NCBI GenBank assembly: GCA_005223185.1 | Contig: NJBN01000002.1 | Location: forward strand, 11,118 to 75,117 | Source: a candidate division LCP-89 bacterium B3_LCP | Lineage (GTDB): Bacteria > Electryoneota > B3-LCP | Direction: 5' to 3' | DNA length: 64,000 nt | In this document: piece by piece, positions 6,917-51,390 of the stretch | Numbering within the stretch: position 1 is the stretch's first letter | Layout: each line of letters starts with the position of its first letter | The notes under the pieces: model-generated | What the model saw: only the letters and a program-made list of their open reading frames with translations | The model's database searches: none | What the model was told of the DNA's origin: nothing | Translations under genes and position numbers: made by a program

Positions 6917-7060
6917 GCACGAATGAATTCGTACGCCCAAATCTTAGGCAAAGTCGCTGAAGCGACTGAGTGAATAGAGCTTATTGAATTTATTCAATTG
7001 GATCTACAAATTGAGCACCGGAACTTTCCCGAAGGGATCCCTATGGGATAGTCCGGTGCA
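6917..7060. repeat. REP-like composite repeat (gcacgaatgaattcgt / aaagtcgctgaagcgact / gcaccggaactt..agtccggtgc)
   Basis: The same order of palindromes recurs at about 48427-48480 and 51170-51322. Confidence 0.75.
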
Positions 7061-7169
7061 TATAAACGGAATTTTTCAGCCATAAATTTCGACACTAAAA
7101 AGACCTTGCATCCGGCGCTATTTTTACGTATATTTTCAAGATAGATCAATATGATATAGGAAATTTAAC

Positions 7170-8465
7170 ATGACACAGTTAAGCCAGGCTAAAGAAGGGA
7201 TCATCACCGAAGAGATGCGTGAAGTAGCCGGGCAGGAAAATATGGATGCTGAAACTTTGCGGCAAAAAATCGCTGCAGGGCACGTGGTCATCCCCAAGAA
7301 TCATGCCCGGGATTTCTTCATTAAGGGGATCGGCTCAGGTCTGACTACCAAGGTTAACGCCAATATAGGGACTTCTCCGGAACACTACGATATAGACGAA
7401 GAGATCAAGAAACTGCAAGTTGCCATGGCTTCAGGCGTTGACAGCGTTATGGACTTATCAACTGGTGGAGATCTGGACGCTATCCGCAAGGCGATACTGG
7501 AGCATTCCTGCGTGATGGTCGGCACGGTGCCTATCTACGGTGCGGCGGCGCGCTTGCTGCAACAGGACAAAGAACTGGTGCAGATGAAAGCGGAAGGTCT
7601 TTTCGAGGAGATCGAAAGGCAGTGCGAACAGGGAATTGATTACATAACCGTACACTGTGGAGTTACCCAACGGGTGCTGGAAATGCTGGAAAACACGCCG
7701 CGTGTTGCTGGCATGGTCAGCAGAGGGGGATCTATTTTAGCCCTCTGGATGAAACATTACGGCAAGGAAAACCCTCTGTACGAACAGTATGACAGGCTAT
7801 TGGACATCGTCTTTAAGTATGACGTCACACTCTCGCTGGGTGACGGCTTGCGACCCGGCGCTATAGCAGACGCCGGTGACCGTCCTCAAATTGAAGAGTT
7901 AGTGGTGTTGGGTGATCTGGCGAGGCGCGCTCGTTCAAGGGGTGTTCAGGTGATGATCGAGGGTCCCGGACACGTTCCACTTCAGGATATAAAATCGCAC
8001 ATACAGATGGAGAAAACAGTCTGTGACGGCGCTCCTTTCTACGTCTTAGGACCGTTGACCACGGACATAGCGCCGGGATACGATCACATCACTTCAGCTA
8101 TAGGCGGCGCTATCGCAGCGGCTGAAGGCGCTGATTTTCTCTGCTACGTAACGCCTGCTGAACATCTGCGTCTGCCGACATTGCCTGAGGTTCGCGAAGG
8201 AGTTTATGCGGCTCGCATCGCGGCTCATTCTGGCGACATAGCCAAGGGCGTACCCGGGGCGACAAATAGAGACCTGCAGATGTCGCAGTACAGACGTGCG
8301 TTAAACTGGGAAGGCATGTACGAGCAAGCTTTAGATTCCGAATTAGCCAGATCGAAAAGGCGGGACAGCGAAGCTTATGACCAGATTATCTGCACCATGT
8401 GCGGAAAGCTCTGTTCGATAAATATGGGAAAAACGGACGACGAAAAGGAGGATGAGGAGGTCTAA
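7170..8465 (+). CDS. thiC: Phosphomethylpyrimidine synthase ThiC (short form)
   Basis: '[10 protein letters not shown]', 'MDLSTGG', 'SRGGS', '[10 protein letters not shown]', 'EGPGH', '[10 protein letters not shown]', C-terminal CTMCGKLC. Confidence 0.88.
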
Positions 8466-8508
8466 TGCAAACCGTCAAGAACTCAATTTCGCCGTATAGG
8501 TATAAAAT

Positions 8509-9066
8509 ATGACTGAAAATAACTCCATAAATTTTCAAAGAGAACCGTTGCTCACCGAGACAGAAATCAAAGTACGTATGGCGGAGATGGTTCTTGAAAT
8601 AGCACGTGATCTTCAACATGAAGAGCTGACTGTAATAGGCATTTTACGCGGCAGCTTCATGTTCATGGCGGATCTAGTTCGCCTTCTATACGTCAACGAT
8701 ATTCACCCCTTGATAGACTTCGTCTTCGTCACCAGCTACGAAGGCACCGAATCCACCGGACATTTGAATTTACTGCGAGATATGTCGTTAGACGTCAAAG
8801 ACCGAAAAGTGTTAATAGTCGATGACATATTGGATACCGGTAGAACGCTTAAGTTCACCAAGGAATATATTATCGAGCGAGAAGCGATGGAAGTAAGCAC
8901 CTGCGTACTGTTGGACAAACCATCGCGAAGAACCGTACCGATAAATGCTGATTATGTCGGTTTTTCGATCAATGACGTCTTTGTTGTTGGCTATGGATTG
9001 GACTATAACGGTAGGTACAGAGACTTGCCCTATTTAGGGGTTATCGATTGTGTAGAAGTTGAGTAA
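8509..9066 (+). CDS. hpt: Hypoxanthine phosphoribosyltransferase
   Basis: 'ILRGSFMFMADL', PRPP motif 'VLIVDDILDTGRTL', 'FVVGYGLDY..YRDLP'. Confidence 0.92.
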   Translation: MTENNSINFQREPLLTETEIKVRMAEMVLEIARDLQHEELTVIGILRGSFMFMADLVRLLYVNDIHPLIDFVFVTSYEGTESTGHLNLLRDMSLDVKDRKVLIVDDILDTGRTLKFTKEYIIEREAMEVSTCVLLDKPSRRTVPINADYVGFSINDVFVVGYGLDYNGRYRDLPYLGVIDCVEVE

Positions 9067-9083
9067 TCGTACCTCTGTCGAAA

Positions 9084-9152
9084 CCGGGACATCCCCGGAG
9101 GGGCTCTCCTTAGGAGTCCTACGGACCTATGGAGCAAGCTGTTCCAGCCACC
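9084..9152. repeat. ccgggacatc..agctgtcccggccacc palindrome family copy carrying a nested double-hairpin insert
   Basis: Homologous to 49108-49157 and to the insert-free copy at about 13976-14002 (minus strand). Confidence 0.7.
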
Positions 9153-9174
9153 TAACCAGTGCAAAAAATTTCGC

Positions 9175-9203
9175 TTGACTTTCTGCTTTTTATTTTTTAT
9201 ACT
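9175..9203 (+). promoter_or_regulatory. sigma70-type promoter
   Basis: TTGACT-17 nt-TATACT upstream of the gene at 9354. Confidence 0.65.
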
Positions 9204-9353
9204 CTGACCAATACACTCACTTGAACTTGCCCTGAAACACACCTGAATTAACCAGCTTTACAACCCCTCACTGCTCTTCTTTGATACGGGGATGAAACAG
9301 TATCAGTATCATTGACTGAACACTACATTATCCATTAAAGACGGAGGAGTAAA

Positions 9354-11468: not shown

Positions 11469-11490
11469 GGATAACCAAAATCCAATTGAT

Positions 11491-11522
11491 AGCCGAGGTA
11501 TAATAGCCTCGGCTTTTTATTT
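11491..11522 (+). terminator. Rho-independent terminator
   Basis: agccgagg-tataatag-cctcggct followed by ttttattt. Confidence 0.85.
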
Positions 11523-11630
11523 GTGCGCCCTGCCGGACGTATTCACTTAAGTCTGTATGTCCCTTACAGACTCGGGTTGGGGGAACTGTTGGCTGGACGG
11601 CAAGGGTGTCGAGCGCGAGGTGGAATCTGC
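11523..11630 (+). mobile_element. Group IIC intron 5' fragment (domain I remnant)
   Basis: Starts GTGCGCCC directly after a terminator U-tract and contains 'ggcaagggtgtc...gcgaggtggaatctg', which I recall as typical of IIC domain I. No RT ORF and no domain V. Confidence 0.7.
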
Positions 11631-11700
11631 AGCGAATCTGAAGTCGCAGCATTGGTACCCTTTGATAGCTTTCTAAAAGGTAGCGCCTTACACTACCAAA

Positions 11701-13938: not shown

Positions 13939-14012
13939 GTTTATACACTTGAGTATTATTCTTTATCTTCGGGCGGGTGGCCCGGACAGCTAGATATCCG
14001 GGTACAACTTCT

Positions 14013-16843: not shown

Positions 16844-16886
16844 GGGTGGCATGCTTCTGGATCGCCGTAGGCGAGACGAAGCATGT
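16844..16886. repeat. 43-bp palindromic repeat, copy 1
   Basis: 41/43 identical to 37973-38015; the copies differ only in the triloop (gta vs aaa). Confidence 0.85.
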
Positions 16887-21243: not shown

Positions 21244-21729
21244 GATAGTAGTTTTCCTTTTATTTCGACATAATCCAGTTAGAACCATTCAACCAAGCTG
21301 ATAAGCACGGAATCATCATTCCATGTTGAAGTACTCCTTCAGATTTACCTGAATAAAACTGCACCAGTTCCATCAAAACGACTCAACGTACTATGGTTGC
21401 AGCCGTTCTGGTTTCAGGTAATTTAAATATCCCACTTTCTTAAGTGAAAATCAATAAATAAGTGTAAAATTTTCAATGGAATGAACGTGAGGATCCCCAT
21501 AATGTCACTCTGAGCGTAGCGCTCCAAAGGAGTCCCTATGGGAAAGAGTCTCATTCCTCTTTACCAAGCAGCTTCACCGGTGAATATTAAAGCAAAAACT
21601 TCAATAAAAATCCCAACTGAAAAACAGCCCCCTCGAACCATTAGTGAATAAATACGCTATTATGTTGTATTATAAAGAATTATGAATAAACTAATTGAGA
21701 GAAAAATCCCAAAAATAATAAAAAAGGTC

Positions 21730-23356: not shown

Positions 23357-23803
23357 ATGCCCAAATCGAAGACTACAAAAAGCGTGAATTCGCGCCGGGG
23401 AACCGCGAATTCCCGGCAAAAGCGTGCGCGCAGTCAGGCTATAAGACCTCCAGGACCCTATCGCCCCAAGCGTAAACCACGTCCGAGCAAGGATTTCAGG
23501 CTTAGATTATACTGGTTTGCGATTGCACTGATTGTTCTGGCGTTCTGCTTGGGTGAAGTATGGAAATCTCATCAGGTTAATCGGCTATGTGCCCGACTGG
23601 ATAAACTCCGCAGTCAACAAGCGAAATTGGAAGAGGAATATTTAAACTTGCAGCTCAAGGCTGATGAAGTATTCTCTTATCATCACGTCGAGCCGCTGGT
23701 GAAAGAACGGTTGGGAATGATTCCATCAAAGAAATCACCAATAGTTATTACGCCCCTGGATGATGAATTTTTGGCTTACAGACAGAAGAGAGTAAAACTA
23801 TGA
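23357..23803 (+). CDS. ftsL: Cell division protein FtsL-like
   Basis: Basic N-terminus, one TM helix, coiled coil, 'LGM'; lies between rsmH and ftsI. Confidence 0.7.
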   Translation: MPKSKTTKSVNSRRGTANSRQKRARSQAIRPPGPYRPKRKPRPSKDFRLRLYWFAIALIVLAFCLGEVWKSHQVNRLCARLDKLRSQQAKLEEEYLNLQLKADEVFSYHHVEPLVKERLGMIPSKKSPIVITPLDDEFLAYRQKRVKL

Positions 23804-25866
23804 CAGCTCGCAAGAAGTCGAATGGAAGAAAGAGCCGCAGAAAGGTTCATAAGAACGTTTCCAAGCGCTATGTGTGGAGAATGCGCATTCTGGCTTTCAC
23901 CATCATAGTCCTCTTTTTTGTCTTAGGCGGTCGTCTGTTTCAGTTGCAGATAGTTGATGGTCAGAAATACGCACAGATAGCGCGCAGGCAGCACATTCGC
24001 AAGGTGAAATTAGAATCCCGCAGAGGCTCTATCGTCGATCGTGCTGGACAGGAAATTGCCTTAGACCATCCGCAGTATTTCACTTGCGGTGTCAGACCCG
24101 CTCAATTGAAAAGTGCGGGGACTCTCTGCACCGAACTGGCAGCTTTTACTTCCAGGCCAGCCAGCCATTACCAACGCAGGTTACAATCACATTCGCCTTT
24201 TGTGTATTTAGAATGGCGCTTGACTGCCTCACAGGCTGACAGGCTGCAGAGCCTCGGCATGAACGGGATGAACCTGAAGAAAACCTCAGGGAGATTCTAT
24301 CCATTCTACCGTGCGACTTCACAACTACTGGGTTATACCGATGTTGATGGCTCCGGTATTGCTGGTCTCGAGGTACAATGTGATGAAGCTCTGCAAGGAG
24401 AGAAAGGCTGGGAAATTCATCAGAGGGACGCCCGCGGCGTCAGCATTTGGGACCCGTTGCGTAGTTATGCTCAACCACGTGATGGTGGCACTGTAAGGCT
24501 ATCGATTGATATTCTCTCTCAAGAAATACTGCATGATGCGTTGATACAGGTGCAGGAGAAATATCAGGCTAATTGGGCAGGAGGCGTGCTGTTAAACCCC
24601 AAAACCGGCGAGATATTAGCAATTTCCAGTGTTCCCGATTTTGATCCTATAAGACCGGAAATTGGGCCTTTGGCCAATCACAAGCTGAAACCGATTACAG
24701 ATTTATTTGAACCAGGATCGGTATTCAAAGTTGTCGCAGCTACTGCCGCTTTGGAAAAGGGGATTGTCTGCCTGGATGATTCCATTTTTTGTGAAAACGG
24801 CAGTTACCGAATTGGCAGAAAACGGCTAAAAGACACTCACGAATACGGATGGCTGACATTCGAGGACGTCATAGTGTATTCGAGCAATATAGGTATGGCG
24901 AAAGTTGCCGAAAAACTGGGATCGAAAGAGATCTATCGCTTTGCAGCGCGATACGGTTTCGGTACACCAACTGGCATTGACTTCCCCGGTGAGAACTCCG
25001 GGAGATTACGTCCCTATGATAAATGGAAGGATATCGACCGCGCCAATATAGCTATGGGACAGGGGATCGCTGCCAATATGCTGCAGTTGGCTTTGGCATT
25101 TGGAGCCATAGCTAATGATGGAATACTGATGGAGCCCCGTCTGGTTCTCGATCGAACGGACATGAAGGGAAATCACCGGTCCTATCCGCCTCGGGAAGTG
25201 CGCAGGGTAATGGAACCCGAAACCGCCAGACAGCTAAGGCAGGTTCTAATCAAATGCGTTGATGAAGGCACCGGGAAGAACGCCGCACTTGATGGTTCCG
25301 CTGTCGCCGGTAAAACTGGTACGGCTCAGGTTCCTGATCTAATAAAGGGTGGGTATTATGACGATAGATTCGTCTCTTCTTTTGCTGGTTTCATTACCGA
25401 TGGCAAGGAAGACCGGCTGCTGGTTATAACCGTCTGTGAACCCCAAGAAGAACACTTCGCTTCGCAGGTAGCAGCGCCGGTATTCAAAAAGGTGATGCAG
25501 AGGCTTCAACCTGCTGACGTCATTAGAAAAACCTGGAAACCAAATCCCATCGAACTGGCGGACGTTTCTGGAGGAATCGGGAAAATGGTGAGTCTCCCCG
25601 ATAGGAACATCGATCTGAAATGGCTGCGCGGTCCAGCACTATCAGATATATCAGAGCTTGCCCGGGAAGATGAGTCTATCGAACAAACTGAAGTTCTTCT
25701 TCCCGATCTAAGAGGAATATCCATACGCGAAGCTACAAGAATTTTAACCAGTTACGGCATTACAGTGGAAATAGACGGCAGCGGCTGGATCGTAAAACAA
25801 TCCTTTAAGCCCGGGACGTCTCTGATTAAGTGCAGTACTTGCCGGCTTAAAGCTAAACCATTATAG
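23800..25866 (+). CDS. ftsI: Peptidoglycan transpeptidase FtsI (PBP3) with PASTA domain
   Basis: 'RGSIVDR', SxxK 'EPGSVFK', SSN, KTGTAQ, C-terminal PASTA. Confidence 0.93.
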   Translation: MTARKKSNGRKSRRKVHKNVSKRYVWRMRILAFTIIVLFFVLGGRLFQLQIVDGQKYAQIARRQHIRKVKLESRRGSIVDRAGQEIALDHPQYFTCGVRPAQLKSAGTLCTELAAFTSRPASHYQRRLQSHSPFVYLEWRLTASQADRLQSLGMNGMNLKKTSGRFYPFYRATSQLLGYTDVDGSGIAGLEVQCDEALQGEKGWEIHQRDARGVSIWDPLRSYAQPRDGGTVRLSIDILSQEILHDALIQVQEKYQANWAGGVLLNPKTGEILAISSVPDFDPIRPEIGPLANHKLKPITDLFEPGSVFKVVAATAALEKGIVCLDDSIFCENGSYRIGRKRLKDTHEYGWLTFEDVIVYSSNIGMAKVAEKLGSKEIYRFAARYGFGTPTGIDFPGENSGRLRPYDKWKDIDRANIAMGQGIAANMLQLALAFGAIANDGILMEPRLVLDRTDMKGNHRSYPPREVRRVMEPETARQLRQVLIKCVDEGTGKNAALDGSAVAGKTGTAQVPDLIKGGYYDDRFVSSFAGFITDGKEDRLLVITVCEPQEEHFASQVAAPVFKKVMQRLQPADVIRKTWKPNPIELADVSGGIGKMVSLPDRNIDLKWLRGPALSDISELAREDESIEQTEVLLPDLRGISIREATRILTSYGITVEIDGSGWIVKQSFKPGTSLIKCSTCRLKAKPL

Positions 25867-25872
25867 GTCTTC

Positions 25873-27324
25873 ATGAAACTTTCAGAAATAGCAGCGGGGA
25901 TTCCCGGATCAGCAATAAAAGGCGTTTCTGATCCTGAAATAGCTAAAGTTGATTATGATTCACGGCAGGTGAACGCGGGGAGTCTCTTTTTCGCCCTTCA
26001 GGGTGAGCGTGAGGATGGGCGCAAATTCATCCCTCAGGCTTTAGAACGAGGTGCGGCTGCTGTAGCTTTGTCCGCTGAACCGGACAGCCCGCTGGACGTG
26101 CCTTATATCATCGTTTCACAACCGCGTCAGGCATTGGCTTTGGCGGCGGGCATTGTAACCGGTTACCCGGATCAACATATCGATCTGGTGGCAGTGACCG
26201 GTACTAATGGAAAAACCACCATAATTTCGCTAGTTGGTGAAATTCTAAAATACGAAACCGGCAAATCGGGCGTAATTGGGACTTTAGGTGGGGTAATCGG
26301 TGATCGCACACATTCATTAGAACGAACCACACCGGAAGCGCCGGATATTTACGCTCTCTTAGCGGAGATGTACCGGGAAGGCATCCATCAAGCAGCCATG
26401 GAAGTTTCTTCACATGCGCTTTCATTGGAGCGTGTCTTCGGTATGAAATTCTCCGCCGCGGTTTTTACCAATCTAAGCCGTGATCACCTGGATTTCCATG
26501 AAACCATCGATGAATATTTTAACGCCAAAGCTAAACTATTCAGCGACTACAAAGTCGGAACGGCGATCATCAATGTCGATGATCAATATGGACAAAAACT
26601 GGTTTCGTTGACGGATAGCGACGTGCTGACCTTTGCCCTGGAATCGAGTGCAGATGTGCATCCTACCGATTTGCAGGTTACCGGAGATGGCATATTCATA
26701 AAGGCAGGCACACCGCGTGGTGAAGTCGAGTTCCAGTCGCCGCTTTTGGGTAGATTTAATGCCTATAACCTCCTCGGTGCTTTAGCTGTAAGTGAAGTTC
26801 TTAAAACCTCTCATGAAGCATTCGTCAGTGCGGTGAAAGAATTCAAGGGTGCGCCCGGCAGGTTGGAACAGATTATCCTAAAGGACCGCCGGGTGTTCAT
26901 TGATTACGCTCACACCCCGGAAGCTTTGAAACTCGTATTGACCGAGATAAAAAGAATAAGTGAAGGTCCCCTCGTCGTAGTCTTTGGATGCGGCGGCGAC
27001 CGAGATCAGGAAAAACGACCCATTATGGGTAGGATAGCAGAAGAGAATTCCGATACAGTCTATATCACGACCGATAATCCGCGCACGGAACGACCTGCGA
27101 GAATCATGTCCGAAATCTTATCCGGCCTCCAGCGTCCCCAGGATGTGATGACGATTCTGGACAGGCGGCACGCTATCTCGACTGCTCTGCACAAGCTTCC
27201 TGCAGGTGGCACCTTATTGATTGCCGGGAAGGGTCATGAAACATATCAGGAAATCAACGGCAAGAGATTTCCTTTTGATGATAGAGCAGAAGTTATTAAA
27301 TACCAACGTGAACTGGTGCGATGA
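25873..27324 (+). CDS. murE: UDP-MurNAc-tripeptide synthetase
   Basis: TGTNGKTT, TTPE, MEVSSH, DYAHTP, DNPR (mDAP-type), GKGHE. Confidence 0.95.
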   Translation: MKLSEIAAGIPGSAIKGVSDPEIAKVDYDSRQVNAGSLFFALQGEREDGRKFIPQALERGAAAVALSAEPDSPLDVPYIIVSQPRQALALAAGIVTGYPDQHIDLVAVTGTNGKTTIISLVGEILKYETGKSGVIGTLGGVIGDRTHSLERTTPEAPDIYALLAEMYREGIHQAAMEVSSHALSLERVFGMKFSAAVFTNLSRDHLDFHETIDEYFNAKAKLFSDYKVGTAIINVDDQYGQKLVSLTDSDVLTFALESSADVHPTDLQVTGDGIFIKAGTPRGEVEFQSPLLGRFNAYNLLGALAVSEVLKTSHEAFVSAVKEFKGAPGRLEQIILKDRRVFIDYAHTPEALKLVLTEIKRISEGPLVVVFGCGGDRDQEKRPIMGRIAEENSDTVYITTDNPRTERPARIMSEILSGLQRPQDVMTILDRRHAISTALHKLPAGGTLLIAGKGHETYQEINGKRFPFDDRAEVIKYQRELVR

Positions 27325-29836: not shown

Positions 29837-29842
29837 TGATTC

Positions 29843-31225: not shown

Positions 31226-32358
31226 TGCCAGGGAAAATCCAGAAAAACTCAATCTTAGGGTTCACATTCCCGCAATCCGAGTCTCTTCATGGTGACCGTT
31301 TGTTCATTCTCAGCATAGCGCTTCTATGCGCAGTTGGCATTCTCATGGTTTACAGCTCATCGTTCTACATGGCCTGGCAGGATTTCCGCAATCCGTATTA
31401 TTTCTTAAAGAGACATTCGCTACGATTATTGATCGGTTTTGTCGCTTTTATGGCGGCGTACAAGTTCAATTATCATCACCTGCGGCGTTGGAGTATCATA
31501 CCTCTTATCATATCGATAATACTGCTAATCTGGGTACTCATAACAGGCAGTAGATGGATTTCAGTTGGTGGGATAACCTTGCAGCCCTCAGAATTTGCCA
31601 GAATAGCGCTCTTAGTGTATCTTGCTGACTGGTGTTCGCGCAACGCCAACAAACTGCGCCAATCTCCGAAAGGATTTCTGTTTGTTCTAACGCTGGTGAT
31701 GATCACCACCGGGTTGGTGATGGCAGAACCCAGCTATTCAGCAGCTGTTATGATTCTAATCTCCGGAGTGGCATTACTGGTGATGTCTGGAGTCAAGTGG
31801 CGGTACTTGATTGCCGCAGCACTTCCGATCCTACCTGTAGCAGGCTATATGGCAGTAGCAGCGTCTTACCGCTTCAGACGCGTCTTCAGTTTCTTAAATC
31901 CTTTAGCTGATCCACAAGGCGCTGGTTATCACACTATTCAATCGAAGATTGCAGTTGGCAGCGGACAGATCTGGGGTTTCGGTTTCGGCATGAGCGGTCA
32001 GAAATTTCACTTTCTACCTGAATCTCACTGCGACTTTATCTTTTCCATACTCTGTGAAGAGAGAGGTTTCATCGGTGCGGCTCTGGTTCTGTTACTGTTC
32101 ATCCTGTTTTTCTGGCGCGGTATAAGAATAGCCGTCAAAGCACGAGATCATTTTGGCTTTCTATTAGCTGGTAGTCTAATTTTCTGTATTGCTTTTTTTG
32201 CCCTGGTCAACATCGGTGTTGCGTTAGGTTCACTGCCTGTAACAGGTCTTCCACTGCCTTTTATATCTTATGGTGGCAGTGCTTTAATAACCAATCTGCT
32301 GGCTTGTGGAATAGTGCTGAACGTTTCCAAGCATAATAATTCACCGGAGCTGACTTGA
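31225..32358 (+). CDS. ftsW: SEDS peptidoglycan glycosyltransferase FtsW
   Basis: 'QPSEF', 'LPESHCDFIF', 'LPFISYGGS'. Confidence 0.93.
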   Translation: MPGKIQKNSILGFTFPQSESLHGDRLFILSIALLCAVGILMVYSSSFYMAWQDFRNPYYFLKRHSLRLLIGFVAFMAAYKFNYHHLRRWSIIPLIISIILLIWVLITGSRWISVGGITLQPSEFARIALLVYLADWCSRNANKLRQSPKGFLFVLTLVMITTGLVMAEPSYSAAVMILISGVALLVMSGVKWRYLIAAALPILPVAGYMAVAASYRFRRVFSFLNPLADPQGAGYHTIQSKIAVGSGQIWGFGFGMSGQKFHFLPESHCDFIFSILCEERGFIGAALVLLLFILFFWRGIRIAVKARDHFGFLLAGSLIFCIAFFALVNIGVALGSLPVTGLPLPFISYGGSALITNLLACGIVLNVSKHNNSPELT

Positions 32359-33452
32359 GTTCCCCGCGCGTTCTCATCGTTGGGGGAGGTACCGGCGGAC
32401 ACTTATTTCCCGCGCTGGCGGTTGCGGACAAGCTGAGTGAAAAAGGCGCCCAGATCATCTTCGCAGGTACCAGAGCAGGCATTGAAGCTAAGTTAGTACC
32501 CGCCAGAGGTTACTCTTTGAAATTTTTGTGGCTTTCAGGTTTTAAGCGCAACCGTATTATTTCTAATCTGTTATTACCGCTGAAGGTTCTCATATCCCTG
32601 GTGCAGTCTCTGGCAATTATATGGAAGTTCCAGCCACAGGCTGCACTGGGAACGGGCGGATATACCTGCGGACCTCTGCTGTTAATAGCTTCATTATACA
32701 GGATTCCCGTATTCCTGCAGGAACAGAACAGCTTTCCCGGTGTGACCACCAGGATGTTGGCGCGCTTTGCCAGGCGGGTCTTTCTCAATTTTCCCGAAGC
32801 GTCAGAGTTCCTCCCTAAAAGAACCAGGTGGAGCCAATCAGGCAATCCAGTTCGGGCTGACATTGATCAAATCAGCAGAGAAGATGCGCTCTCAAAGTGG
32901 GGTCTTGATCCTTCACTGCCGATCCTGCTGGTATTTGGAGGTTCACAGGGCGCTGCCAGTATTAACCGGGCGGTTAATGAGTGTCTGGAAGAACTTTCGG
33001 CCATGTGCAACTTGATCTGGGGACATGGTAGCAGGGATCAGAAGGAAGTTGATAGTTGGACAGGTAAGGGTAAATTGATAGAGAAGTCGTTTATCGAAGA
33101 TATGCCTTCAGCTTATGCGGCAGCTGATTTAGCTATCTGCCGCAGCGGGGCTATGACCCTGTCCGAACTGCAAGTAGCAAACGTGCCAGCGCTGTTAATT
33201 CCCTATCCTTACGCTGCGGGAGATCATCAGATGCATAATGCTATAGCTTATTCGAAAAAGGGTGGCGCTGTGGTGATTCCTGATGCGGAGTTGAACGGGA
33301 CTAAGCTTATCGCGGAAGTAAAAAATCTTCTGAACAATCCTGAAGAGCTAAAGAATATGCGTAGCGCATTATCCGGGATTCAAAGTATAAACGCCAGCGA
33401 GATGATAGCCGAAGAGATCATTGATTCCATCAGCGAGAAGGTGAAGAGTTAA
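32355..33452 (+). CDS. murG: Lipid II GlcNAc transferase
   Basis: GGGTGGH, EQNSFPG, GNPVR, GGSQGA, RSGA. Confidence 0.96.
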   Translation: MSSPRVLIVGGGTGGHLFPALAVADKLSEKGAQIIFAGTRAGIEAKLVPARGYSLKFLWLSGFKRNRIISNLLLPLKVLISLVQSLAIIWKFQPQAALGTGGYTCGPLLLIASLYRIPVFLQEQNSFPGVTTRMLARFARRVFLNFPEASEFLPKRTRWSQSGNPVRADIDQISREDALSKWGLDPSLPILLVFGGSQGAASINRAVNECLEELSAMCNLIWGHGSRDQKEVDSWTGKGKLIEKSFIEDMPSAYAAADLAICRSGAMTLSELQVANVPALLIPYPYAAGDHQMHNAIAYSKKGGAVVIPDAELNGTKLIAEVKNLLNNPEELKNMRSALSGIQSINASEMIAEEIIDSISEKVKS

Positions 33453-33457
33453 TTCCT

Positions 33458-34834
33458 ATGTTCCTGCGTCTGAAAAATTTGCATTTTATCGGTATAGGCG
33501 GTATCGGTATGTCCGGGATAGCTGAAGTCCTGCTTAATCAAGGATTTAGTGTCAGCGGTTCCGATCTGATGGATTCAGAAACTATAGATCATCTCCGAAG
33601 GCTCGGCGCTGACGTACATATCGGTCATGCTAAGGCTAACGTCAGAAAGGCGCAGGTGGTTGTCTATTCGTCCGCAGTTAAACCGGACAACGTGGAATAT
33701 ATCGAAGCGAAGCGCCAGGGTGTGCCCATCATCGCGAGAGCGGAAATGCTCAGCGAACTTATGCGCATGAAATACGGTATAGCTGTAGCTGGAACTCATG
33801 GCAAGACCACCACCACGTCTATGGTTGCGGCTATAATGACTCAGGCGGACCTTGACCCCACATTTATAGTCGGTGGCAAAGTAAAATCATTGGCTACCAA
33901 CGCGCGCCTGGGTTCTGGTGAATTCTTAGTGGCGGAAGCGGATGAATATGACCGCTCATTCTTAAAACTGACACCGGCAATTGCTATAATCACTACGCTG
34001 GAAACAGAGCATTTAGATACCTACGGAAATCTGGCGGAAATCCGTCGGGCATTCGTAAGATTCACTGAACGGGTTCCTTTCTACGGATCAATTGTCCTTT
34101 GCCTTGATGAACCTGTGGTAGCGTCACTGATCTCTGACATTCGCCGACCCGTAATAACCTATGGAATCGATGCCGGCGCCGACATAAGCGCTGTAGATAT
34201 TTCATTTTCAGAAATGCAATCGACTTTCGATCTGATCGTCAGGGGTGATAGTAGAGGAAAGGTAACTATCAATCAGCCCGGGTTGCATAATGTCAAGAAC
34301 GCTCTGGCTGCCATCGGAGTAGCCGAAGAACTGGAGATAGCTTTTGATTCTATTCAGAAAGGGCTGTCGGGATTTCGTGGCGTAGAGAGGCGCTTTGAGA
34401 TAAAAGGTCAGGCTAAGGGCGTGATGGTAGTGGACGATTATGCACATCATCCCACCGAAGTAAGAGCGACCTTGGCGGCTGCCAGGAATGGATTCGACCG
34501 TCGCATTATAGCGGTCTTTCAGCCTCATCTATTCAGCCGAACCAAGGATTTCACTGAGGACTTCGGAAGGAGTTTCTCCGATGCTGACGTCTTAATTGTA
34601 ACGGACATTTACGCCGCGCGCGAAGAACCTATTCCTGGCGTTAATGGTGAATTGATCGCTGATGCGGCTAAAAATACCGGTCACGAAAATGTGCTTAACA
34701 TTCCCGAAATGGAAGACATTTCACCAGAATTATCGAAGATAGTGCAATCCGGAGACATGGTGATTACTCTGGGAGCAGGCAACATCTGGAAAGTTGCACG
34801 AGATTTCCTTAAATATCTTGAAGATGATGAGTAA
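33458..34834 (+). CDS. murC: UDP-MurNAc-L-alanine ligase
   Basis: GIGGIGMSG, GTHGKTTT, EADEYD, DDYAHHPTE, FQPH. Confidence 0.97.
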   Translation: MFLRLKNLHFIGIGGIGMSGIAEVLLNQGFSVSGSDLMDSETIDHLRRLGADVHIGHAKANVRKAQVVVYSSAVKPDNVEYIEAKRQGVPIIARAEMLSELMRMKYGIAVAGTHGKTTTTSMVAAIMTQADLDPTFIVGGKVKSLATNARLGSGEFLVAEADEYDRSFLKLTPAIAIITTLETEHLDTYGNLAEIRRAFVRFTERVPFYGSIVLCLDEPVVASLISDIRRPVITYGIDAGADISAVDISFSEMQSTFDLIVRGDSRGKVTINQPGLHNVKNALAAIGVAEELEIAFDSIQKGLSGFRGVERRFEIKGQAKGVMVVDDYAHHPTEVRATLAAARNGFDRRIIAVFQPHLFSRTKDFTEDFGRSFSDADVLIVTDIYAAREEPIPGVNGELIADAAKNTGHENVLNIPEMEDISPELSKIVQSGDMVITLGAGNIWKVARDFLKYLEDDE

Positions 34835-34836
34835 TC

Positions 34837-35739
34837 ATGCATCTGCCCGCGGAAATATCCGAAAATGTTTTAATGGGACCGATGACCTCCTATTCTATAG
34901 GCGGACCGGCGAAGTATTATGCAAAACCTGCTGAACAGGAAATACTTATTCGCATATTGCAGTGGGCTTTTGACAATGGGGTACAGACTTTCATCTTGGG
35001 CGGAGGAACCAACATACTGGTTTCCGACCGAGGATTTGAGGGGCTAGTCGTCCATTTGAAAGACCTTGATGTAAAGCCCGTTGAAATAAATGAGAACGGT
35101 GAATGCACAGTAGGGGCCGGTACTATGCTAACTCCCTTTGTCCGGCATTTAGCCGGTAGAGGTTTCAGCGGTATGGAGGATTTGATCGGGATACCCGGTA
35201 CCGTAGGTGGAGCGCTCATTATGAATGCCGGTGCTTATACTCAGGAGATAAACCAGTCTCTGATCTTCGTTGACGTACTGACTGAAAACATGCGAGTTAA
35301 GCGAGTAAAGAAAGAGGAGATAGGTTTTCAATACCGGTCAGCGCCGGGGCTAAAAGGTAAGATTGTGTTGTCCAGTAAATTTCGCTTTACACCTGGTGAT
35401 CCACAGAAGCTCATGACACGCGTGCGCGAAGTAACAGCAATGCGGCGGGATCGCCAACCGCTGAAATGGCATTCCTGCGGATCCGTATTCAAGCGACCAC
35501 CGGGTGACTATGCCGGTAGGTTGATCGAAGCAGCCGGATTGAAAGGAACTTCAGTCGGTGGCGCTGAAATTTCTGACAAACACGCCAACTTCATAATCAA
35601 TCGGGGTAACGCTTCCGCTTCTGATGTGATTGAATTGATAAGAATTGCCAAACGCCGCGTGGAAGAGGAGTTCAGTGTTTCTTTACAGAGAGAGGTATCG
35701 TTAATTGGCTTTAAGAAAAAGGAAATCCAGGACACATAA
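34837..35739 (+). CDS. murB: UDP-N-acetylenolpyruvoylglucosamine reductase
   Basis: GGGTN, IPGTVGG..MNAGAY, GSVFK, HANFIIN. Confidence 0.95.
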   Translation: MHLPAEISENVLMGPMTSYSIGGPAKYYAKPAEQEILIRILQWAFDNGVQTFILGGGTNILVSDRGFEGLVVHLKDLDVKPVEINENGECTVGAGTMLTPFVRHLAGRGFSGMEDLIGIPGTVGGALIMNAGAYTQEINQSLIFVDVLTENMRVKRVKKEEIGFQYRSAPGLKGKIVLSSKFRFTPGDPQKLMTRVREVTAMRRDRQPLKWHSCGSVFKRPPGDYAGRLIEAAGLKGTSVGGAEISDKHANFIINRGNASASDVIELIRIAKRRVEEEFSVSLQREVSLIGFKKKEIQDT

Positions 35740-36520
35740 AAAGGGCAAATCGCATTCATTGCGAATCCTCGTCAGCATATTGATTGCAACGTCAATGGTG
35801 TCGTTGGTGGTCATTGTCGGCTGGTTTTTAAGCCCCAACGTTCTACAATACCTTTCCCAACAGGAATGTTTCAAACTGGAGGAAGTCTGCTTTACGGGTA
35901 ACGAACACATTGAAGAGACGGATCTTCTGTCCCTTCTTCCTGAAGTGATCGGTATCAATCTCTTCTCTCTGGACTTAAATATCATAAAGCATGCGGTACT
36001 ACAGCATCCCTGGGTTTTGGAAGCGTCAGTGCACAGGCGCTTGCCGGATAGACTCTTGATTAGAGTAGAAGAGAAGCAACCAGTTGCCTTAGTAAAGCTA
36101 AAAACTCTTCAGGCAATATCAGCCAGTGGTGATCTTCTGCCTCTGGATAAATGGCATGGTGCCATAGACCTACCGCTAATTCAAGCGGCAAAATTTCAAA
36201 ATTCCCTGAAAGATGATAAAATAAATAACCGACGTTTAATGGATATAACCAGAAGTGTCGCTGCCCTGAAGAAGAGAATCCCCGATCTCTGGCTGTTAAT
36301 TTCGGAAATAACACTTGATAGAAAGGGACGCATAGTGATGTACCCTTCCTGTAGCCATACGTGTATTTTAGTAGGAGATGAACTTGGCTGGCAGCAGATG
36401 CGCGATTTTTATTCCTTTATCATCTTCCAGGGTTCACCAAACGGTATGGTTGATATCAGCTTTGTGGATTTGCGATTTCGGGGGAAGGTAATCGTTCGAA
36501 GAACCAGCAGCGACACCTGA
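35705..36520 (+). CDS. ftsQ: Cell division protein FtsQ/DivIB
   Basis: TM helix, POTRA-like 'PWV..ASVHRRLPDRLLIRVEE', C-terminal 'VDLRF'. Confidence 0.85.
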   Translation: MALRKRKSRTHKKGKSHSLRILVSILIATSMVSLVVIVGWFLSPNVLQYLSQQECFKLEEVCFTGNEHIEETDLLSLLPEVIGINLFSLDLNIIKHAVLQHPWVLEASVHRRLPDRLLIRVEEKQPVALVKLKTLQAISASGDLLPLDKWHGAIDLPLIQAAKFQNSLKDDKINNRRLMDITRSVAALKKRIPDLWLLISEITLDRKGRIVMYPSCSHTCILVGDELGWQQMRDFYSFIIFQGSPNGMVDISFVDLRFRGKVIVRRTSSDT

Positions 36521-36560
36521 TGATCAGCAGGTGCGATCTTTCACCTTTTGCGAGGTACTA

Positions 36561-37850
36561 ATGAACAACAGAAAGCGGAACCCCGGTGAAGGGGAACAGG
36601 ATGTGGTCGTAGGATTAGACCTGGGAACTTCCAGGACTACAGTTGTAATCGCCGAGCGAGATGGTCATTCCCTGAACGTAATCGGTCAGGGAACGAGTCC
36701 TTCCACAGGATTGAAGAACGGTGTGGTGGTCAATATCGAAGGGACGGTCGAAAGCATAATTAACGCTGTCGAAGCTGCTGAGAGGATGGCTAACACGACC
36801 GTCAATTCCGCCTATACGACTATTTCCGGTGATCATATCCGTTCGGTTAATTCCAAAGGTATGATCGCTGTGGGCAGGTCCGGCAACGGGATTGGCAGTA
36901 AGATTTCACGTGAGGATATTCACCGGGTGATAGATACGGCGAGGACAGTTACCTTCCCTGCTGATCGTGAAGTACTCCATGTCGTGCCGCAGGATTTCTT
37001 AGTTGACAATCGCATGGGTTTTAAGGATCCCGTGGGGATCGTGGGTTTAAGACTGGAAGCCAACGTCCATATTATCACAGCTGCGCAGGCGGCTGCTCAG
37101 ACGATTCTGTTCTGCCTGCAGGAAGCTAATATACAACCTGAAGACCTGGTCTTTCAGGCATTAGCAGCCAGTCAATCGGTTCTGACCGAAGACGAACGCG
37201 AATTGGGTATAGCTTTAATTGATATAGGTGCAGGAACGATGGACATAGCAGTCTATCATGAAGGCGCTATCAGGCATACGGCAGTTATCGGTTTAGGAGG
37301 CGAAAGCGTTACCCGTGACCTTGCGCATGGGCTGCGAATCCCCAGAAATGACGCAGAAAATCTGAAACTTGAATTCGGATGTGCGTTAGCTTCCTGCCTG
37401 GAAAATGATTCACCCATAGTCTTGAACGGCAATGAGGAGAGACCCGATCGCAGCGTTGCCCCTGATATCGTCTGTTCGGTCATTCAACCACGCATGGAAG
37501 AGATATATGATTTGGCCATAAAAGAACTCAGGCAGGCAGATTGTTTCGCTAAAATTACCGCAGGAATTGTGTTGACTGGTGGAGCTTCGATGATACCGGG
37601 AAGCGTGGAATTAGCAGAAGAGGTGTTCACCTTGCCCGCGAGGCTGGGAAAACCACGCGGTTTAGGTTGTCTCACCGAGGTTGCCAATGCTCCGGATCAC
37701 GCTACCGCAATTGGGCTCGTGAAATACGGTTTGATGCAGCAGGATTCTGAAATTCGCGGCATGCGGGTTTTACGCAGACGCCGCAGAGGCTATAGATCAA
37801 AGAACAACCGCATCGAAAACATCAAGCGCTGGTTTACGGATATATTTTAA
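36561..37850 (+). CDS. ftsA: Cell division protein FtsA
   Basis: 'GLDLGTS', 'DIGAGT', 'VLTGG', C-terminal amphipathic helix. Confidence 0.95.
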   Translation: MNNRKRNPGEGEQDVVVGLDLGTSRTTVVIAERDGHSLNVIGQGTSPSTGLKNGVVVNIEGTVESIINAVEAAERMANTTVNSAYTTISGDHIRSVNSKGMIAVGRSGNGIGSKISREDIHRVIDTARTVTFPADREVLHVVPQDFLVDNRMGFKDPVGIVGLRLEANVHIITAAQAAAQTILFCLQEANIQPEDLVFQALAASQSVLTEDERELGIALIDIGAGTMDIAVYHEGAIRHTAVIGLGGESVTRDLAHGLRIPRNDAENLKLEFGCALASCLENDSPIVLNGNEERPDRSVAPDIVCSVIQPRMEEIYDLAIKELRQADCFAKITAGIVLTGGASMIPGSVELAEEVFTLPARLGKPRGLGCLTEVANAPDHATAIGLVKYGLMQQDSEIRGMRVLRRRRRGYRSKNNRIENIKRWFTDIF

Positions 37851-37910: not shown

Positions 37911-38015
37911 GTCATTCTGAGCAAGCCGAAGGCGCAGCGAAGAATCTCTTGTTATCCGATAATCCCATAGTCGGGTGGCATGCTTCTGGATCGCCAAAGG
38001 CGAGACGAAGCATGT
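37911..38015. repeat. REP-like palindromes between ftsA and ftsZ
   Basis: gtcattctgagc..gcagcgaagaatctc (homolog of 21504-21552) plus copy 2 of the 43-bp repeat (37973-38015). Confidence 0.8.
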
Positions 38016-45247: not shown

Positions 45248-45259
45248 ATCGGTTTCGAA

Positions 45260-45332
45260 GCCACCGTAACTCAGTTGGTAGAGTAGCTGATTCGTAATCA
45301 GTCTGTCGGAGGTTCGACTCCTCTCGGTGGCT
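45260..45332 (+). tRNA. tRNA-Thr(CGT)
   Basis: Acceptor stem GCCACCG/CGGTGGC, D-arm, anticodon arm gctga-ttCGTaa-tcagt, T-loop GGTTCGACTCC. CCA is not encoded. Confidence 0.95.
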
Positions 45333-45406
45333 CTATGAAGAGCCCCCCAAGGCTTAAAGGGGCTCTCATCTTTAAGTTGGAAATCGGAAATTGGAAGAAT
45401 AAGTAT

Positions 45407-46840: not shown

Positions 46841-46864
46841 TGATAACTGACGGCATTACTCCTC

Positions 46865-48343: not shown

Positions 48344-48359
48344 TCCTGCAATCATATAT

Positions 48360-49235
48360 GCTGCACAGCCGGGACATCCCCTTGATGGTAACCTTTCCAC
48401 AGCTTCGAAGGAGTGGCTTCGAAAAGCACACGAATAAATTCGTATGCCCAGATTTTGGGTAAAGTCGCTAAAGCGACTGATTAAGGCACAAGGTCGGGTG
48501 GACATATCATGTGACAGATGTGGCGGACACAATGAAGTGTCCGTCATTTTTTGCGTCTGTTTTGTGCTTAGGAAAAGGGGTAGGCGACAGTTATGTCTTT
48601 TATATTGGGATTTGGGATTGATGGATTCTGGGTTCAGTTTGCATCAGACAAGGGCGTCTGACGCCACACTATAACGTTGGCACACCACTTAAGGGTCCTT
48701 ACGGACGAGGGCGTGCGACAGCACTGTGCTGGAGGGGTTCTGTATATAATATACAACATTTGGCGGGAAAAAGCAAGGGAAATTTTGGGATTTTAAGGTG
48801 GGAGTGGAGTAATGAAAGGCATGAGATCGCTTCGTCATCCGTCGGCTGACGGATTTCTCGCGATGACGGTAGTGGAGGATTGCTTCTCAATTCTGAATAG
48901 AAAGATTTGTTTGACAGTTTGGACTTCTCTGGATTCCCGCGTACGCGGGAATGACAGTGTGGGGGACGGGGGATTGCTTTGTCCGGTTTCGCCGTCCTCG
49001 TCAAATAGTGATCAATGAGGGTGGCGTCTGATGCCATTTTGCGTTGGGTTGTCCCGTAGGGACGGCTACGCCGCGCTGTGCTTAACCCAACCTACTAGCT
49101 GATCCCCCCGGGACATCCCCAAAGGGGTGGCTTCGCCACAAGCTGTCCCGGCCACCCGCCAGGGATCAGTGAGTGAATGGGAAGATTTGGATGATACTTT
49201 GGACACCTCTGGATCCCTGCGTCCGCAGGGATGAC
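48360..49235. repeat. About 0.9 kb cluster of REP/RPE-like palindromes
   Basis: Includes ctggattcccgcgtacgcgggaatgac, ctggatccctgcgtccgcagggatgac, gagatcgcttcgtc..ctcgcgatgac, gttgggtt..aacccaacctac and ggcgtctgacgcc. No credible CDS. Confidence 0.8.
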
Positions 49236-49340
49236 TGCATCCATTTCCCCGCAAAAAATATCCCCTCTTGACTTTTGGTGATTTATTTTGTATATTGTTA
49301 TTTGGGTACTTGTATTTATCTTAATGTTCTGGCGGTAGCC

Positions 49341-50999
49341 ATGCGCGCTAAATTCATACTTCTACTACTTCCCACCCTTCTTCTGGCACTCCCCTACCCT
49401 CTCTCCGCCCAGTGGACACCTGACCCGTACGATGGTATGGTGACGGTTACCAATGAACCTGGAAATCAGAGTAACATCGAAATCTTAAGCTTATCAGGAA
49501 ATAACACAATTTTAGTTTGGCAAAGTACCAACAATTGGCCTCTGAAGTACTATTATCAGGTACTGGATCTGCGAGGTAGAGCTTTATTACCTGAAAACGG
49601 GGTTCCCCTTATAGATGGAAACTGGGAATATGGTTGGGGGTATGGAGGTTTGATGCCCGACGGCGAGGGCGGCTGCATTGCCGTTTTCGATGACTGGCGA
49701 GATGGATCGCGCCAGATTTACGGCCAGCGAATAGACGCCAGAGGAAGCCGCCTCTGGGGAGAAAACGGGCTTCCCCTGGCGATTTGGCCTGAATACGATC
49801 TGAATAGTTTAGATATAGCCTATGATTCCCTGGGCAATTTCTTTGTTTGTTTTACCTATGAGACGATTCAGAGTGATTATTATTTGTACGCACAGAAATT
49901 CGACAACAACGGAAATTGCCATTGGGGACCCTATGGCATTCCGATTTGCACATATGGTGGATATGCGATTTTTTCAGAAGCCGTACAGGATGAAGAAGGA
50001 GGCATCCTCATTGTCTGGGAGGATAGCAGGCAGAGTGGTAGTTATTATGAGCGTCTATTTTACTTTCAGCATCTGGATGCTGCAGGCAATCCCCTTCTGC
50101 TGGAGAATGGCATTCAGATTCGACTGGCTTCTGAGAGTCTTGATTGCTGCCATGATGGCGTTTCAGACGGCCAGGGTGGCGGCATCTGGTCCTGGCAGAA
50201 GAGCGGACCCGGTATCGATTCTGAACTTGCTGCTTTCCGGCTCTCAGGAGATGGACGTACCATATGGGAGTGGTATGGAGGCATCGTATGCACGCGTTCG
50301 TTTTTAGAAATGAAATCACATCCTGATGACGGCAATATATGGTTAAGTGATAATGAGGATAGAACCGGCCAATATGTAGGTTATATTTATTGCTTCACAG
50401 CTGACGGAACACCGTTGTTTGGTGATGAGGGTCTTCCTTATGGTGGATGGCTTGTACCAGCTCCCGGCGGTATCATTACGATATATTCCCCTTACTCCGA
50501 AGTTAGATCAGTTCTAAGTGCTCAATATGTGCACAATGATGGCAATCCTGGCTGGAAGACCACGATGGCGCAATGTGACACTTTGGGACAGGCTCTTACT
50601 GGACAGTGTGGTGCGCCCGACGGTTTTGGGGGTGCTGTGGTTGCAATCTATGACGACCGCATTCAGACAGCTGGTCATGACATAGCTGCCCAACGGGTTT
50701 GTTGGGATGGCCAGGTCGCCTGGACTAAATATAAACCACCAACAAAAATTACCATCATAGATGCTGTTCTAAACTACCATAACGGAATACTATCATACAA
50801 TCTTCCTCAAGCAGGTATAATAAAACTTGACCTATTTGACGTTTTAGGGCGTAGAATAGAGACCCTGGCAGAGAGCTATAAAGATGCAGGGCAATACAAT
50901 ATACACATAAACAACACACACTTACCTTCAGGAATTTACCTCACAAAACTGACTTCACCTGTAGGCAGCCATGTCGCCAAGATGGTTGTGGTGCGGTAA
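49341..50999 (+). CDS. Secreted repeat (propeller-like) protein with T9SS-type C-terminal domain
   Basis: Signal peptide; repeated 'DGxGG..W.D.R..YxQ..D..G' units; 'FDVLGRRI..LPSGIYL..KMVVVR'. Confidence 0.82.
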   Translation: MRAKFILLLLPTLLLALPYPLSAQWTPDPYDGMVTVTNEPGNQSNIEILSLSGNNTILVWQSTNNWPLKYYYQVLDLRGRALLPENGVPLIDGNWEYGWGYGGLMPDGEGGCIAVFDDWRDGSRQIYGQRIDARGSRLWGENGLPLAIWPEYDLNSLDIAYDSLGNFFVCFTYETIQSDYYLYAQKFDNNGNCHWGPYGIPICTYGGYAIFSEAVQDEEGGILIVWEDSRQSGSYYERLFYFQHLDAAGNPLLLENGIQIRLASESLDCCHDGVSDGQGGGIWSWQKSGPGIDSELAAFRLSGDGRTIWEWYGGIVCTRSFLEMKSHPDDGNIWLSDNEDRTGQYVGYIYCFTADGTPLFGDEGLPYGGWLVPAPGGIITIYSPYSEVRSVLSAQYVHNDGNPGWKTTMAQCDTLGQALTGQCGAPDGFGGAVVAIYDDRIQTAGHDIAAQRVCWDGQVAWTKYKPPTKITIIDAVLNYHNGILSYNLPQAGIIKLDLFDVLGRRIETLAESYKDAGQYNIHINNTHLPSGIYLTKLTSPVGSHVAKMVVVR

Positions 51000-51004
51000 A
51001 AGAA

Positions 51005-51390
51005 AAAATCTGAACCGCTGATTACACGGATTTCACAGATTAACAGGGATGACAGACTGGCTAGGGCATTTGTCATTCCGGGCGAAGACCCGATGCGTAG
51101 CACTCTCCATAGGAGTCCTATGGACCTACGGAGAATCCAGTGATTATTCCAAATTGTCACTCCGTTGTCGCACCAGAATGAATTTCTGGTGCTCAGTATC
51201 TTAACTACAAAGTCGTTGAAACGACTAAAATACTTCAGACTGCGGTATTGGCTTTCCCGTAGGGATTCTTATGGAACAGCCAATTTGTACTACAAAATTG
51301 AGCACCGGAACTTCAGTCCGGTATGGAACGGTAGCTGTTGGGTTGTCCCGTAGGGACGGCTACGCCGCGCTACGCTTAACCCAACCTACA
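51005..51390. repeat. Second cluster of REP-like palindromes
   Basis: 51337-51389 nearly duplicates 49043-49095; also gtcattccgggcgaagacccg..aatccag and the 6917-type composite. Confidence 0.8.

Follow-up and report, generated by a model that had tools for sequence, protein, structure and literature searches.

Probable Insertion Elements of 20–24 Nucleotides, Built of Two Triloop Hairpins, in a Candidate Division LCP-89 Bacterium and Other Lineages

The genome of candidate division LCP-89 bacterium B3_LCP (assembly GCA_005223185.1) carries small two-hairpin modules, which are described here from a stretch of 64,000 nucleotides (nt), termed the window (contig NJBN01000002.1, positions 11,118 to 75,117), and from the genome around it. 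Precise insertions of a module of fixed size, related in sequence and constrained in structure, recur at a short preferred target in numerous hosts and lineages. These modules are probably very small (20–24 nt) non-autonomous insertion elements free of any open reading frame (ORF), analogous to the small dispersed repeats (SDRs) of cyanobacteria, and they are among the smallest insertion elements known. Each consists of two abutting GC-rich mini-hairpins with 3-nt loops, the 5′ loop being purine-N-A (R-N-A) and the 3′ loop T-N-pyrimidine (T-N-Y). The assembly has 3.79 Mb in 18 contigs at 46.6% GC, with the window on contig C12, and all genome counts come from this one metagenome-type assembly of 95.8% completeness.

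An original prediction, made from the letters of the window, named eight sites with such modules, and all eight are confirmed, either exactly or with a boundary that can shift by 1 nt. Their hosts are mostly short repeats resembling repetitive extragenic palindromes (REPs), which occur with a module (filled) or without one (empty). The elements and empty hosts of the window are listed below, the vertical bar denoting the junction.

7027..7048: 22-nt element TCCC-GAA-GGGA + TCCC-TAT-GGGA, in the apical loop of the REP-like host 7013-7059
9093..9134: nested pair of 42 nt, whose outer 22-nt element is CCCC-GGA-GGGG + CT|CC-TAT-GGAG
9106-9125: inner 20-nt element CTCC-TTA-GGAG + TCC-TAC-GGA, interrupting the outer element of 9093..9134
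21522..21543: 22-nt element CTCC-AAA-GGAG + TCCC-TAT-GGGA, in host CTCTGAGCGTAGCG|AAGAGTCTCATTCC
49051..49072: 22-nt element GTCCC-GTA-GGGAC + GGC-TAC-GCC, in host ..GTTGGGTT|GCGCT..GCTTAACCCAAC
49117..49138 (or 49118-49139, 1-nt ambiguity): 22-nt element CCCC-AAA-GGGG + TGGC-TTC-GCCA, in the family A host 49104-49152
51093..51132: nested pair, whose outer 20-nt element is (A)TGC-GTA-GCA(C) + T|CC-TAC-GGA
51105-51124: inner 20-nt element CTCC-ATA-GGAG + TCC-TAT-GGA, interrupting the outer element of 51093..51132
51255..51276: 22-nt element TCCC-GTA-GGGA + TTCT-TAT-GGAA with one T.G pair, in the palindrome ATTGGCT..AGCCAAT
51345..51366: 22-nt element GTCCC-GTA-GGGAC + GGC-TAC-GCC, element and host as at 49051..49072
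6952..6967: empty copy of REP AGTCGCT|GAAGCGACT
About 13976..14002 (-): diverged empty relative of the family A host
51300..51322: the host of 7013-7059 in its empty state, junction between 51313 and 51314
53741..53772: empty copy of host GGGTCGGC|CAAGACCGACCC, junction between 53756 and 53757

Most of these hosts have counterparts in the other state. By flank clustering, the host family of 7013-7059 has 22 empty and 6 filled copies, and the empty homologue that the prediction had placed at 51302 matches this host at 51300-51322. Sixteen empty copies accompany the element at 21522..21543, the sole filled copy of its cluster, and the cluster of 51345..51366 holds 8 empty and 3 filled copies. 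Host GGGTCGGC|CAAGACCGACCC has a single filled copy, on another contig, 168 nt from the gene of a REP-associated tyrosine transposase (RAYT). The outer element of 51093..51132 occurs uninterrupted elsewhere in the genome, 4 of its copies being empty of the inner element. Family A (CCGGGACAT...AGCTGTYCC) is host to the nested pair at 9093..9134. It is also host to the element at 49117..49138, for which the DNA fold predicts a three-way junction within the host. The second empty homologue of the prediction, at about 13976-14002(-), is indeed an empty relative of host 49104-49152, but a diverged one.

The same contrast extends over the genome. The 10-nt flanks of 183 GC-rich seeds were searched genome-wide for the distance at which they recur, with one mismatch allowed per flank. 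The distances are bimodally distributed, with 283 sites at gap 0 and 69, 18, 72, 16, and 39 sites at gaps of 20, 21, 22, 23, and 24; gaps of 1-19 together give 48 sites and gaps of 25-69 give 77 (counts that include the seeds and in which some sites are doubled through one-base boundary shifts). Merging leaves 97 filled sites, 19-25 nt long, whose host family has at least 2 empty copies as well. Of 79 unique filled/empty pairs, 70 hold a dual hairpin with no more than one non-Watson-Crick pair, and in several pairs the 28 nt of flank agree without a single mismatch. Approximately 26 flank clusters hold both states; some are related, hence at least 20 unrelated host families are counted, in which the states differ by exactly 20-24 nt. 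Host CCCGGAAAT|GAATTTCCGGG, for instance, has 37 empty and 11 filled copies, and host GAGCACCGGAACTT|YAGTCCGGTGC has 22 empty and 6 filled. The alignment of filled and empty hosts, which the prediction had proposed as a check, is therefore in its favor. A search blind to structure (exact 9+9 flanks, at least 4 occurrences) recovered 15 such inserts, 20-22 nt long, and almost every one is a dual hairpin. An exact 12+12 flank search, which is too strict, found only 2 inserts of 20 nt among 262 repeated 24-mers.

The junctions are clean. Their position is ambiguous by 0 nt in 29 pairs, by 1 nt in 40, and by 2 nt in 1, and because the ambiguity is almost always 0-1 nt, there is no target duplication longer than one base, as had been predicted. 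An identical element is found in unrelated hosts, and different elements are found at one point of one host family; in one such family four different inserts occupy the same point, with flanks that differ by 0-2 of 28 nt. The elements also insert into each other, as claimed at the outset: contig C16 adds one nested case to the two of the window, and in each of the three the insertion point is T|CC, within the 5′ stem of hairpin 2 of the outer element. The predicted modules of fixed size and without ORFs, inserted into hosts, are thus borne out by filled/empty pairs and nesting alike.

The preferred insertion site is T-N|N-A, as follows from the bias around sites here and in other genomes. Symmetrised empty sites of this genome have T at −2 and A at +2 in 102 of 140 positions, and among 124 copies in other genomes T stands at −1 in 75 and A at +1 in 77. 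Here most insertions fall in loops of the REP-like palindromes of RAYT or IS200-like Y1 genes; REP loops are rich in T-N|N-A sites, which also occur elsewhere. The palindromy of the immediate flanks in other genomes is barely above chance. Insertion into palindromes, as first proposed, holds for the many REP-like hosts but not as a rule, given that the sites are not always palindrome apices. In a separate REP family, GTCGGGGTC...GACCCCGAC, some copies contain an additional 15-nt segment (GCCTGCGCCTATGGT or a variant of it) and others lack it. Two bases of the host complete the segment to a single triloop hairpin. The segment is possibly related to the elements as a one-hairpin form, and examples of it outside the window lie at two positions.

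C6:55069-55083: 15-nt segment of REP family GTCGGGGTC...GACCCCGAC
C12:284782-284796: 15-nt segment of the same family

Chance palindromes or assembly artefacts can practically be dismissed as the source of these modules. The descriptor of the prediction (two abutting perfect triloop hairpins of 20-22 nt in total, with N-N-A and T-N-Y loops, on either strand) has 110 hits genome-wide, compared with 39, 34, 38, 36, and 31 in five dinucleotide shuffles. When both stems are at least 60% GC, 64 hits stand against 5, 7, 1, 2, and 1, so that the genome-wide check against shuffled controls shows the enrichment that was anticipated. The one point on the side of chance is the unrestricted descriptor, any abutting pair of triloop hairpins, whose 353 hits exceed the 226-259 of the shuffles only ~1.4-fold; since GC-rich pairs are strongly enriched, the signal is that of a specific subpopulation, in which TCCC, CTCC, GTCC, TCC, and CCCC are the prevailing stems and CTGAC, GTGGC, and GGC are rarer. 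A pattern search gave 24/25 hits, compared with 0/0 for the pattern read backwards. Shuffles and backwards patterns refute chance, and covariation, the recurrence of filled and empty states in Pedobacter sp. R-06, and the presence of the element in the complete genome of this cultured isolate speak equally against artefacts.

The stems covary as expected of two hairpins. In the 23 hits of the pattern YYCC-RNA-GGRR-YYCC-TNY-GGRR, the Y/R pairs that the pattern leaves free are Watson-Crick in 91 of 92 cases, compared with 46 expected, and when the same positions are fully freed, 25 of 28 hits have 4/4 Watson-Crick pairs. Over 18 distinct sequences, the two-hairpin model pairs 71 of 72 positions and a model of a single long hairpin 21 of 72. 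The covariation of free positions therefore indicates two mini-hairpins rather than one long hairpin. Complementarity of the two loops, which the long-hairpin model calls for, is found in 8 of 76 elements here (11.6 expected) and in 32 of 125 in other genomes (41 expected), and that model was rejected. One host family shows compensated double changes, such as CTGAC/GTCAG to CTAAC/GTTAG, together with a few G.T pairs; its copies probably descend from one insertion. Stem pairing is maintained by selection or by hairpin-templated correction.

The order of the loops is fixed. Among 76 host-validated elements, 46 have purine-N-A followed by T-N-pyrimidine and 0 have the reverse order. This first class is its own reverse complement, so the same 5′-to-3′ arrangement is read on both strands. 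The loop rule of the prediction accordingly stands for these 46 of 76 elements, but 12 of 76 have R-N-A in both loops. Its length of 20-22 nt was right in that the size is tightly bounded, though genome-wide the range is 20-24 nt and a 24-nt type is common. Two further claims are to be given up. The stems do not differ freely, as most share a YCC/GGR core, and the family is not defined purely by structure, as the sequence core is nearly identical across phyla and insertion prefers T-N|N-A.

Filled sites avoid genes, and their hosts accompany a particular class of them. Only 5 of the 97 filled sites fall inside ORFs of at least 150 aa, which cover 84% of the genome, and three of the five are chance matches. 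For the most part the hosts are REP-like and border Y1 (RAYT or IS200-like) genes. Host palindromes lie within 18-314 nt of 7 of the 10 Y1_Tnp matches in the genome, several on both sides. Eight Y1 ORFs were scanned, of which four pass the NCBI RAYT model and four pass the IS200/IS605 model; the latter four carry the signature Y---Q--HH (Y---Q--YH in one). The four diverged IS200-like Y1 genes are each flanked by REP-like palindromes, in the manner of a REPtron.

C15:70807-71148: diverged IS200-like Y1 gene (L001)
C16:80813-81154: diverged IS200-like Y1 gene (L002)
C12:418317-418652: diverged IS200-like Y1 gene (L003)
C7:60031-60375: diverged IS200-like Y1 gene (L004)

According to PMC6006769, the Y---Q--HH signature marks subclass 1.2, which is restricted to Cyanobacteria and Bacteroidetes and is without known hairpins. 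L001-L004 differ from the subclass as described there, as palindromes flank them.

Related modules occur well beyond this genome. The 21-nt type S-TCC-RNA-GGA-S-TCC-TNY-GGA-S is present in 2 of the 79 species genomes that make up this small phylum, with 23 copies here and 27 in another genus, and its backwards control has 0 hits in all 79. A 22-nt type is found in 5 of 9 family genomes, with 23, 13, 11, 1, and 1 copies. In one relative (G001), two copies of REP AGTCGCT|GAAGCGACT border a Y1 gene. One is empty, and the other holds the only 22-nt element of that genome, at exactly the junction of the window copy at 6952..6967. Across 185,579 species genomes, one 21-mer pattern occurs in at least 120 stretches, compared with ~17 expected by simple arithmetic. 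Among the matches listed (80) are Bacteroidota of many orders, ~18 Ignavibacteria/Ignavibacteriota, one Calditrichaceae, and two Balneolaceae. More than 40 elements are carried by the cultured, completely sequenced Pedobacter sp. R-06, where the first type counts 23-24 copies and a 22-nt type 17; a repeat of this genome, GTCATCCT|GAGCG.AGTCGAA, has 12 empty copies and 3 filled with exactly 20 nt, and no other spacing in the range 0-24. In viral contigs the element occurs in 3 stretches only, and a BLAST search of a 35-nt stretch against plasmids gave no match.

At several loci (L093, L068, L040, L036, and L027, from Bacteroidota and other metagenome-assembled genomes), the 21-mer lies within longer runs of mini-hairpins (...CCCGAAG[element]GATYCCTTCGG...), which suggests arrays or repeated nesting. 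At locus L049 (2580-2627), from a metagenome-assembled Bacteroidetes genome, two identical 21-nt elements stand in tandem, 6 nt apart.

This distribution bears on the idea that the module is a selected cis-acting site, such as the binding site of a dimeric protein or an RNA or DNA signal, which recombination has spread for its usefulness with no dedicated mobility. A core strongly conserved across phyla, a symmetric loop polarity, and intergenic placement would all suit such a site. The idea is nonetheless quite improbable, as close relatives carry anything from 0 copies to more than 40, the elements nest in each other, and a reader of double-stranded sequence has no need of stem covariation. 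Rfam also offers no matching family: for the elements, the window at gathering score gave no match to any curated covariance model, and neither did positions 48900-51500 at E ≤ 1.

Of the systems already described, SDRs are the closest. SDR4, SDR5, and SDR6 of Nostocaceae (Elhai et al. 2008, Genome Res 18:1484) are reported to be ORF-less dispersed repeats of 21-27 nt that share a structure with compensatory changes. They reportedly nest in each other and in small transposons, SDR5 being inserted between bases 3 and 4 of the octamer HIP1. The elements here are likewise dispersed and ORF-less, with 20-24 nt and ~100 validated copies, and they nest in each other and in other small repeats. Their own secondary structure covaries strongly and may resemble that of SDR4, SDR5, and SDR6. 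In both cases the insertion point in a short palindrome is precise. The host marks the difference, as this organism is not a cyanobacterium and HIP1 is rare in its genome (25 copies). The comparison with SDRs that the prediction had drawn is apt as an analogy. SDRs of Nostocaceae are treated in PMC4390886, PMC5861425, PMC2884548, and PMC3116915, and PMC5861425 reports no SDR-like repeat outside Nostocaceae among HIP1-rich cyanobacteria. In the Nostoc punctiforme plasmid pNPUN01, dual hairpins were absent from the first 50 kb and the core pattern from all 354 kb. Compared by description, the elements may be regarded as a variant akin to the SDR kind, filed apart from SDR membership.

REPs and their transposases offer a second comparison. 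The hosts, as REP-like palindromes flanking Y1 genes, resemble the REP and REPIN (REP doublet) systems of RAYTs, but the 20-24-nt modules do not themselves flank a cognate RAYT as inverted copies; only their hosts do. Once inside a REP, the element is copied along with it. The REP loop is an insertion point for insertion sequences (IS) that target REPs. Full insertion sequences are known to enter REP palindromes (IS1397, J Bacteriol 181:6929; Tobes & Pareja 2006), both works being cited in PMC3116915. The unit inserted here differs from these in being 20-24 nt long and geneless and in spreading across many REP families and outside REPs.

IS200/IS605 elements are a third. PMC6006769 describes subterminal hairpins of 20-25 nt in them, together with guide tetranucleotides. 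The elements here have in common with them the hairpins at either end, the choice of target by sequence, and the lack of target duplication, and the single-stranded circular intermediate of IS200/IS605 would have its counterpart in the circle proposed below. The elements are, however, 10-50 times smaller, leave no room for guide sequences, and use the symmetric target T-N|N-A. Nor does their presence depend on an IS200-type TnpA: the gene occurs without elements, and Pedobacter sp. R-06 shows the reverse.

Mini-hairpins of the form d(C-GNA-G) are unusually stable in DNA. The elements resemble them in having, on each strand, one R-N-A loop closed by C-G. The stability of such hairpins is a physical property and not a genetic element, and AAA and ATA loops are also common here. 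A literature search of main texts, by phrase and by sequence string, returned no description of these elements.

A route of movement can be proposed. The element would move as single-stranded DNA, and a circle of 20-24 nt could fold into a dumbbell of 7-10 bp capped by both triloops. The two junctions of such a circle look equivalent, yet the loop polarity of 46:0 suggests that it would always be opened at the same one, which in turn points to an enzyme that reads the loops. This enzyme would act in trans, being encoded elsewhere, to cut and join. A Y1 HUH enzyme is the leading candidate for the cutting and joining, one that fits through its hairpin ends, specific target, and lack of duplication as described in PMC6006769; it is a tentative, rather doubtful candidate because tests of co-occurrence fail to support it. 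The co-occurrence with HUH/Y1 genes that had been offered as a check does not discriminate across relatives, the phylum, and Pedobacter sp. R-06. In G002, which has 40 elements, the closest IS200-like copy is broken. The IS200-like enzymes of subclass 1.2 (PMC6006769) were considered as the mobiliser and are weakened by Pedobacter sp. R-06, which is without an IS200-like homologue. A fuller picture is that of dumbbell-forming transposons of single-stranded DNA, 20-24 nt long, spread horizontally in Bacteroidota and allied phyla by the same mechanism as SDRs and moved in trans by a host single-strand nuclease-ligase (Y1 HUH or other), which would recognise the two triloop hairpins and open the circle at one junction. 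As a whole this picture is speculative and rather doubtful.

Several observations weigh against insertion elements of this kind. Nearest-neighbour DNA folding often favors one extended hairpin where both stems are alike. Y1_Tnp occurs in 38 of 41 relatives, and most of these have no elements. IS200-like homologues occur in 17 of the 79 phylum genomes, including the element-free G003 and G005; two such element-free genomes carry intact homologues at 50-53% identity. In Pedobacter sp. R-06, no IS200-like homologue was found at E ≤ 1e-8, only weak Y1 matches. Solo mini-hairpins, sought as the ends of a larger parent element, are at shuffle level (1840 compared with 1884-1937), and because they lack enrichment, no such parent was found. 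Presence and absence at orthologous sites was not seen, the orthologous spacers being too diverged. The contrast of filled and empty hosts is therefore paralogous only, and current activity, as well as insertion over precise deletion, rests on parsimony. Host clusters 65, 61, and 37 have no empty copies.

Those three clusters, together with family A, which is mostly filled and has 17 copies sharing one insert type, and with hosts that flank Y1 genes, would suit a view of the modules as intrinsic variable apices of REPs or REPINs. The segment would then be immobile, and filled and empty copies would be old subfamilies, each amplified by its own RAYT. This is very unlikely given that at least 20 unrelated host families are found in both states, exactly 20-24 nt apart and with near-identical flanks. 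Moreover, the same 20-22-mer is shared by unrelated hosts and by other phyla, in many cases away from any palindrome, and the four inserts at one point of one host family, between flanks differing by 0-2 of 28 nt, are equally hard to reconcile with an immobile segment.

The missing parent element and solo hairpins, and the failure of Y1 to co-occur, are instead what a templated filler would leave. Breaks or nicks at hairpin loops (T-N|N-A) would be repaired by copying a short conserved template. The copying enzyme could, for example, be a polymerase or reverse transcriptase that has an RNA or DNA template of its own, and the same module would be supplied each time. Fixed size, absence of duplication, and a core conserved across phyla agree with this. 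Many templates would be needed, though, as the 23 copies of type II in one genome comprise 18 distinct sequences whose stems covary; the elements also propagate with their variants, and nested copies differ from the outer ones. A candidate template was not found, though no search was aimed at one. Templated filling is accordingly unlikely, and small insertion elements are the preferred reading.

The relatives offer few sites for direct comparison. The nearest genomes have ~66% DNA identity in coding sequence, and G002 and G008 are too diverged from each other for their spacers to be compared. Upstream of thiC, the spacers of five relatives lack the entire host repeat and are uninformative on the small element. 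The neighbouring gene at 49275-50999 has no orthologue in two element-bearing relatives.

The window contains other features. A family of repeats, GGGTGGCAT[22 nt]GACGAAGCATGT, has as its apex one TCGCC-RNA-GGCGA hairpin and is represented by 25 filled copies and none empty. At 23800-37850 lies a compact cluster of cell-division and cell-wall genes, a series of uninterrupted + strand ORFs of which the first matches models of FtsI-type penicillin-binding proteins and the last matches FtsA. Some proteins encoded in the window carry type IX secretion sorting domains.

16853-16874: repeat GGGTGGCAT[22 nt]GACGAAGCATGT
37982-38003: repeat GGGTGGCAT[22 nt]GACGAAGCATGT
45260-45332: tRNA gene
58788-59128: RNase P RNA, bacterial class A (269 bits)

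The precise and repeated insertion of DNA of ~20 nt in many lineages has been an open question since SDRs were described in 2008. To this question the elements described here bring a defined anatomy, namely two triloop hairpins, a fixed loop order, and the target T-N|N-A, along with dozens of exact filled/empty pairs. They also bring a distribution over several phyla, with copies in the cultured and completely sequenced Pedobacter, where the mechanism is amenable to a bench test. For the REP and RAYT systems that house them, the elements mean that these systems are themselves open to parasitism by a much smaller element.

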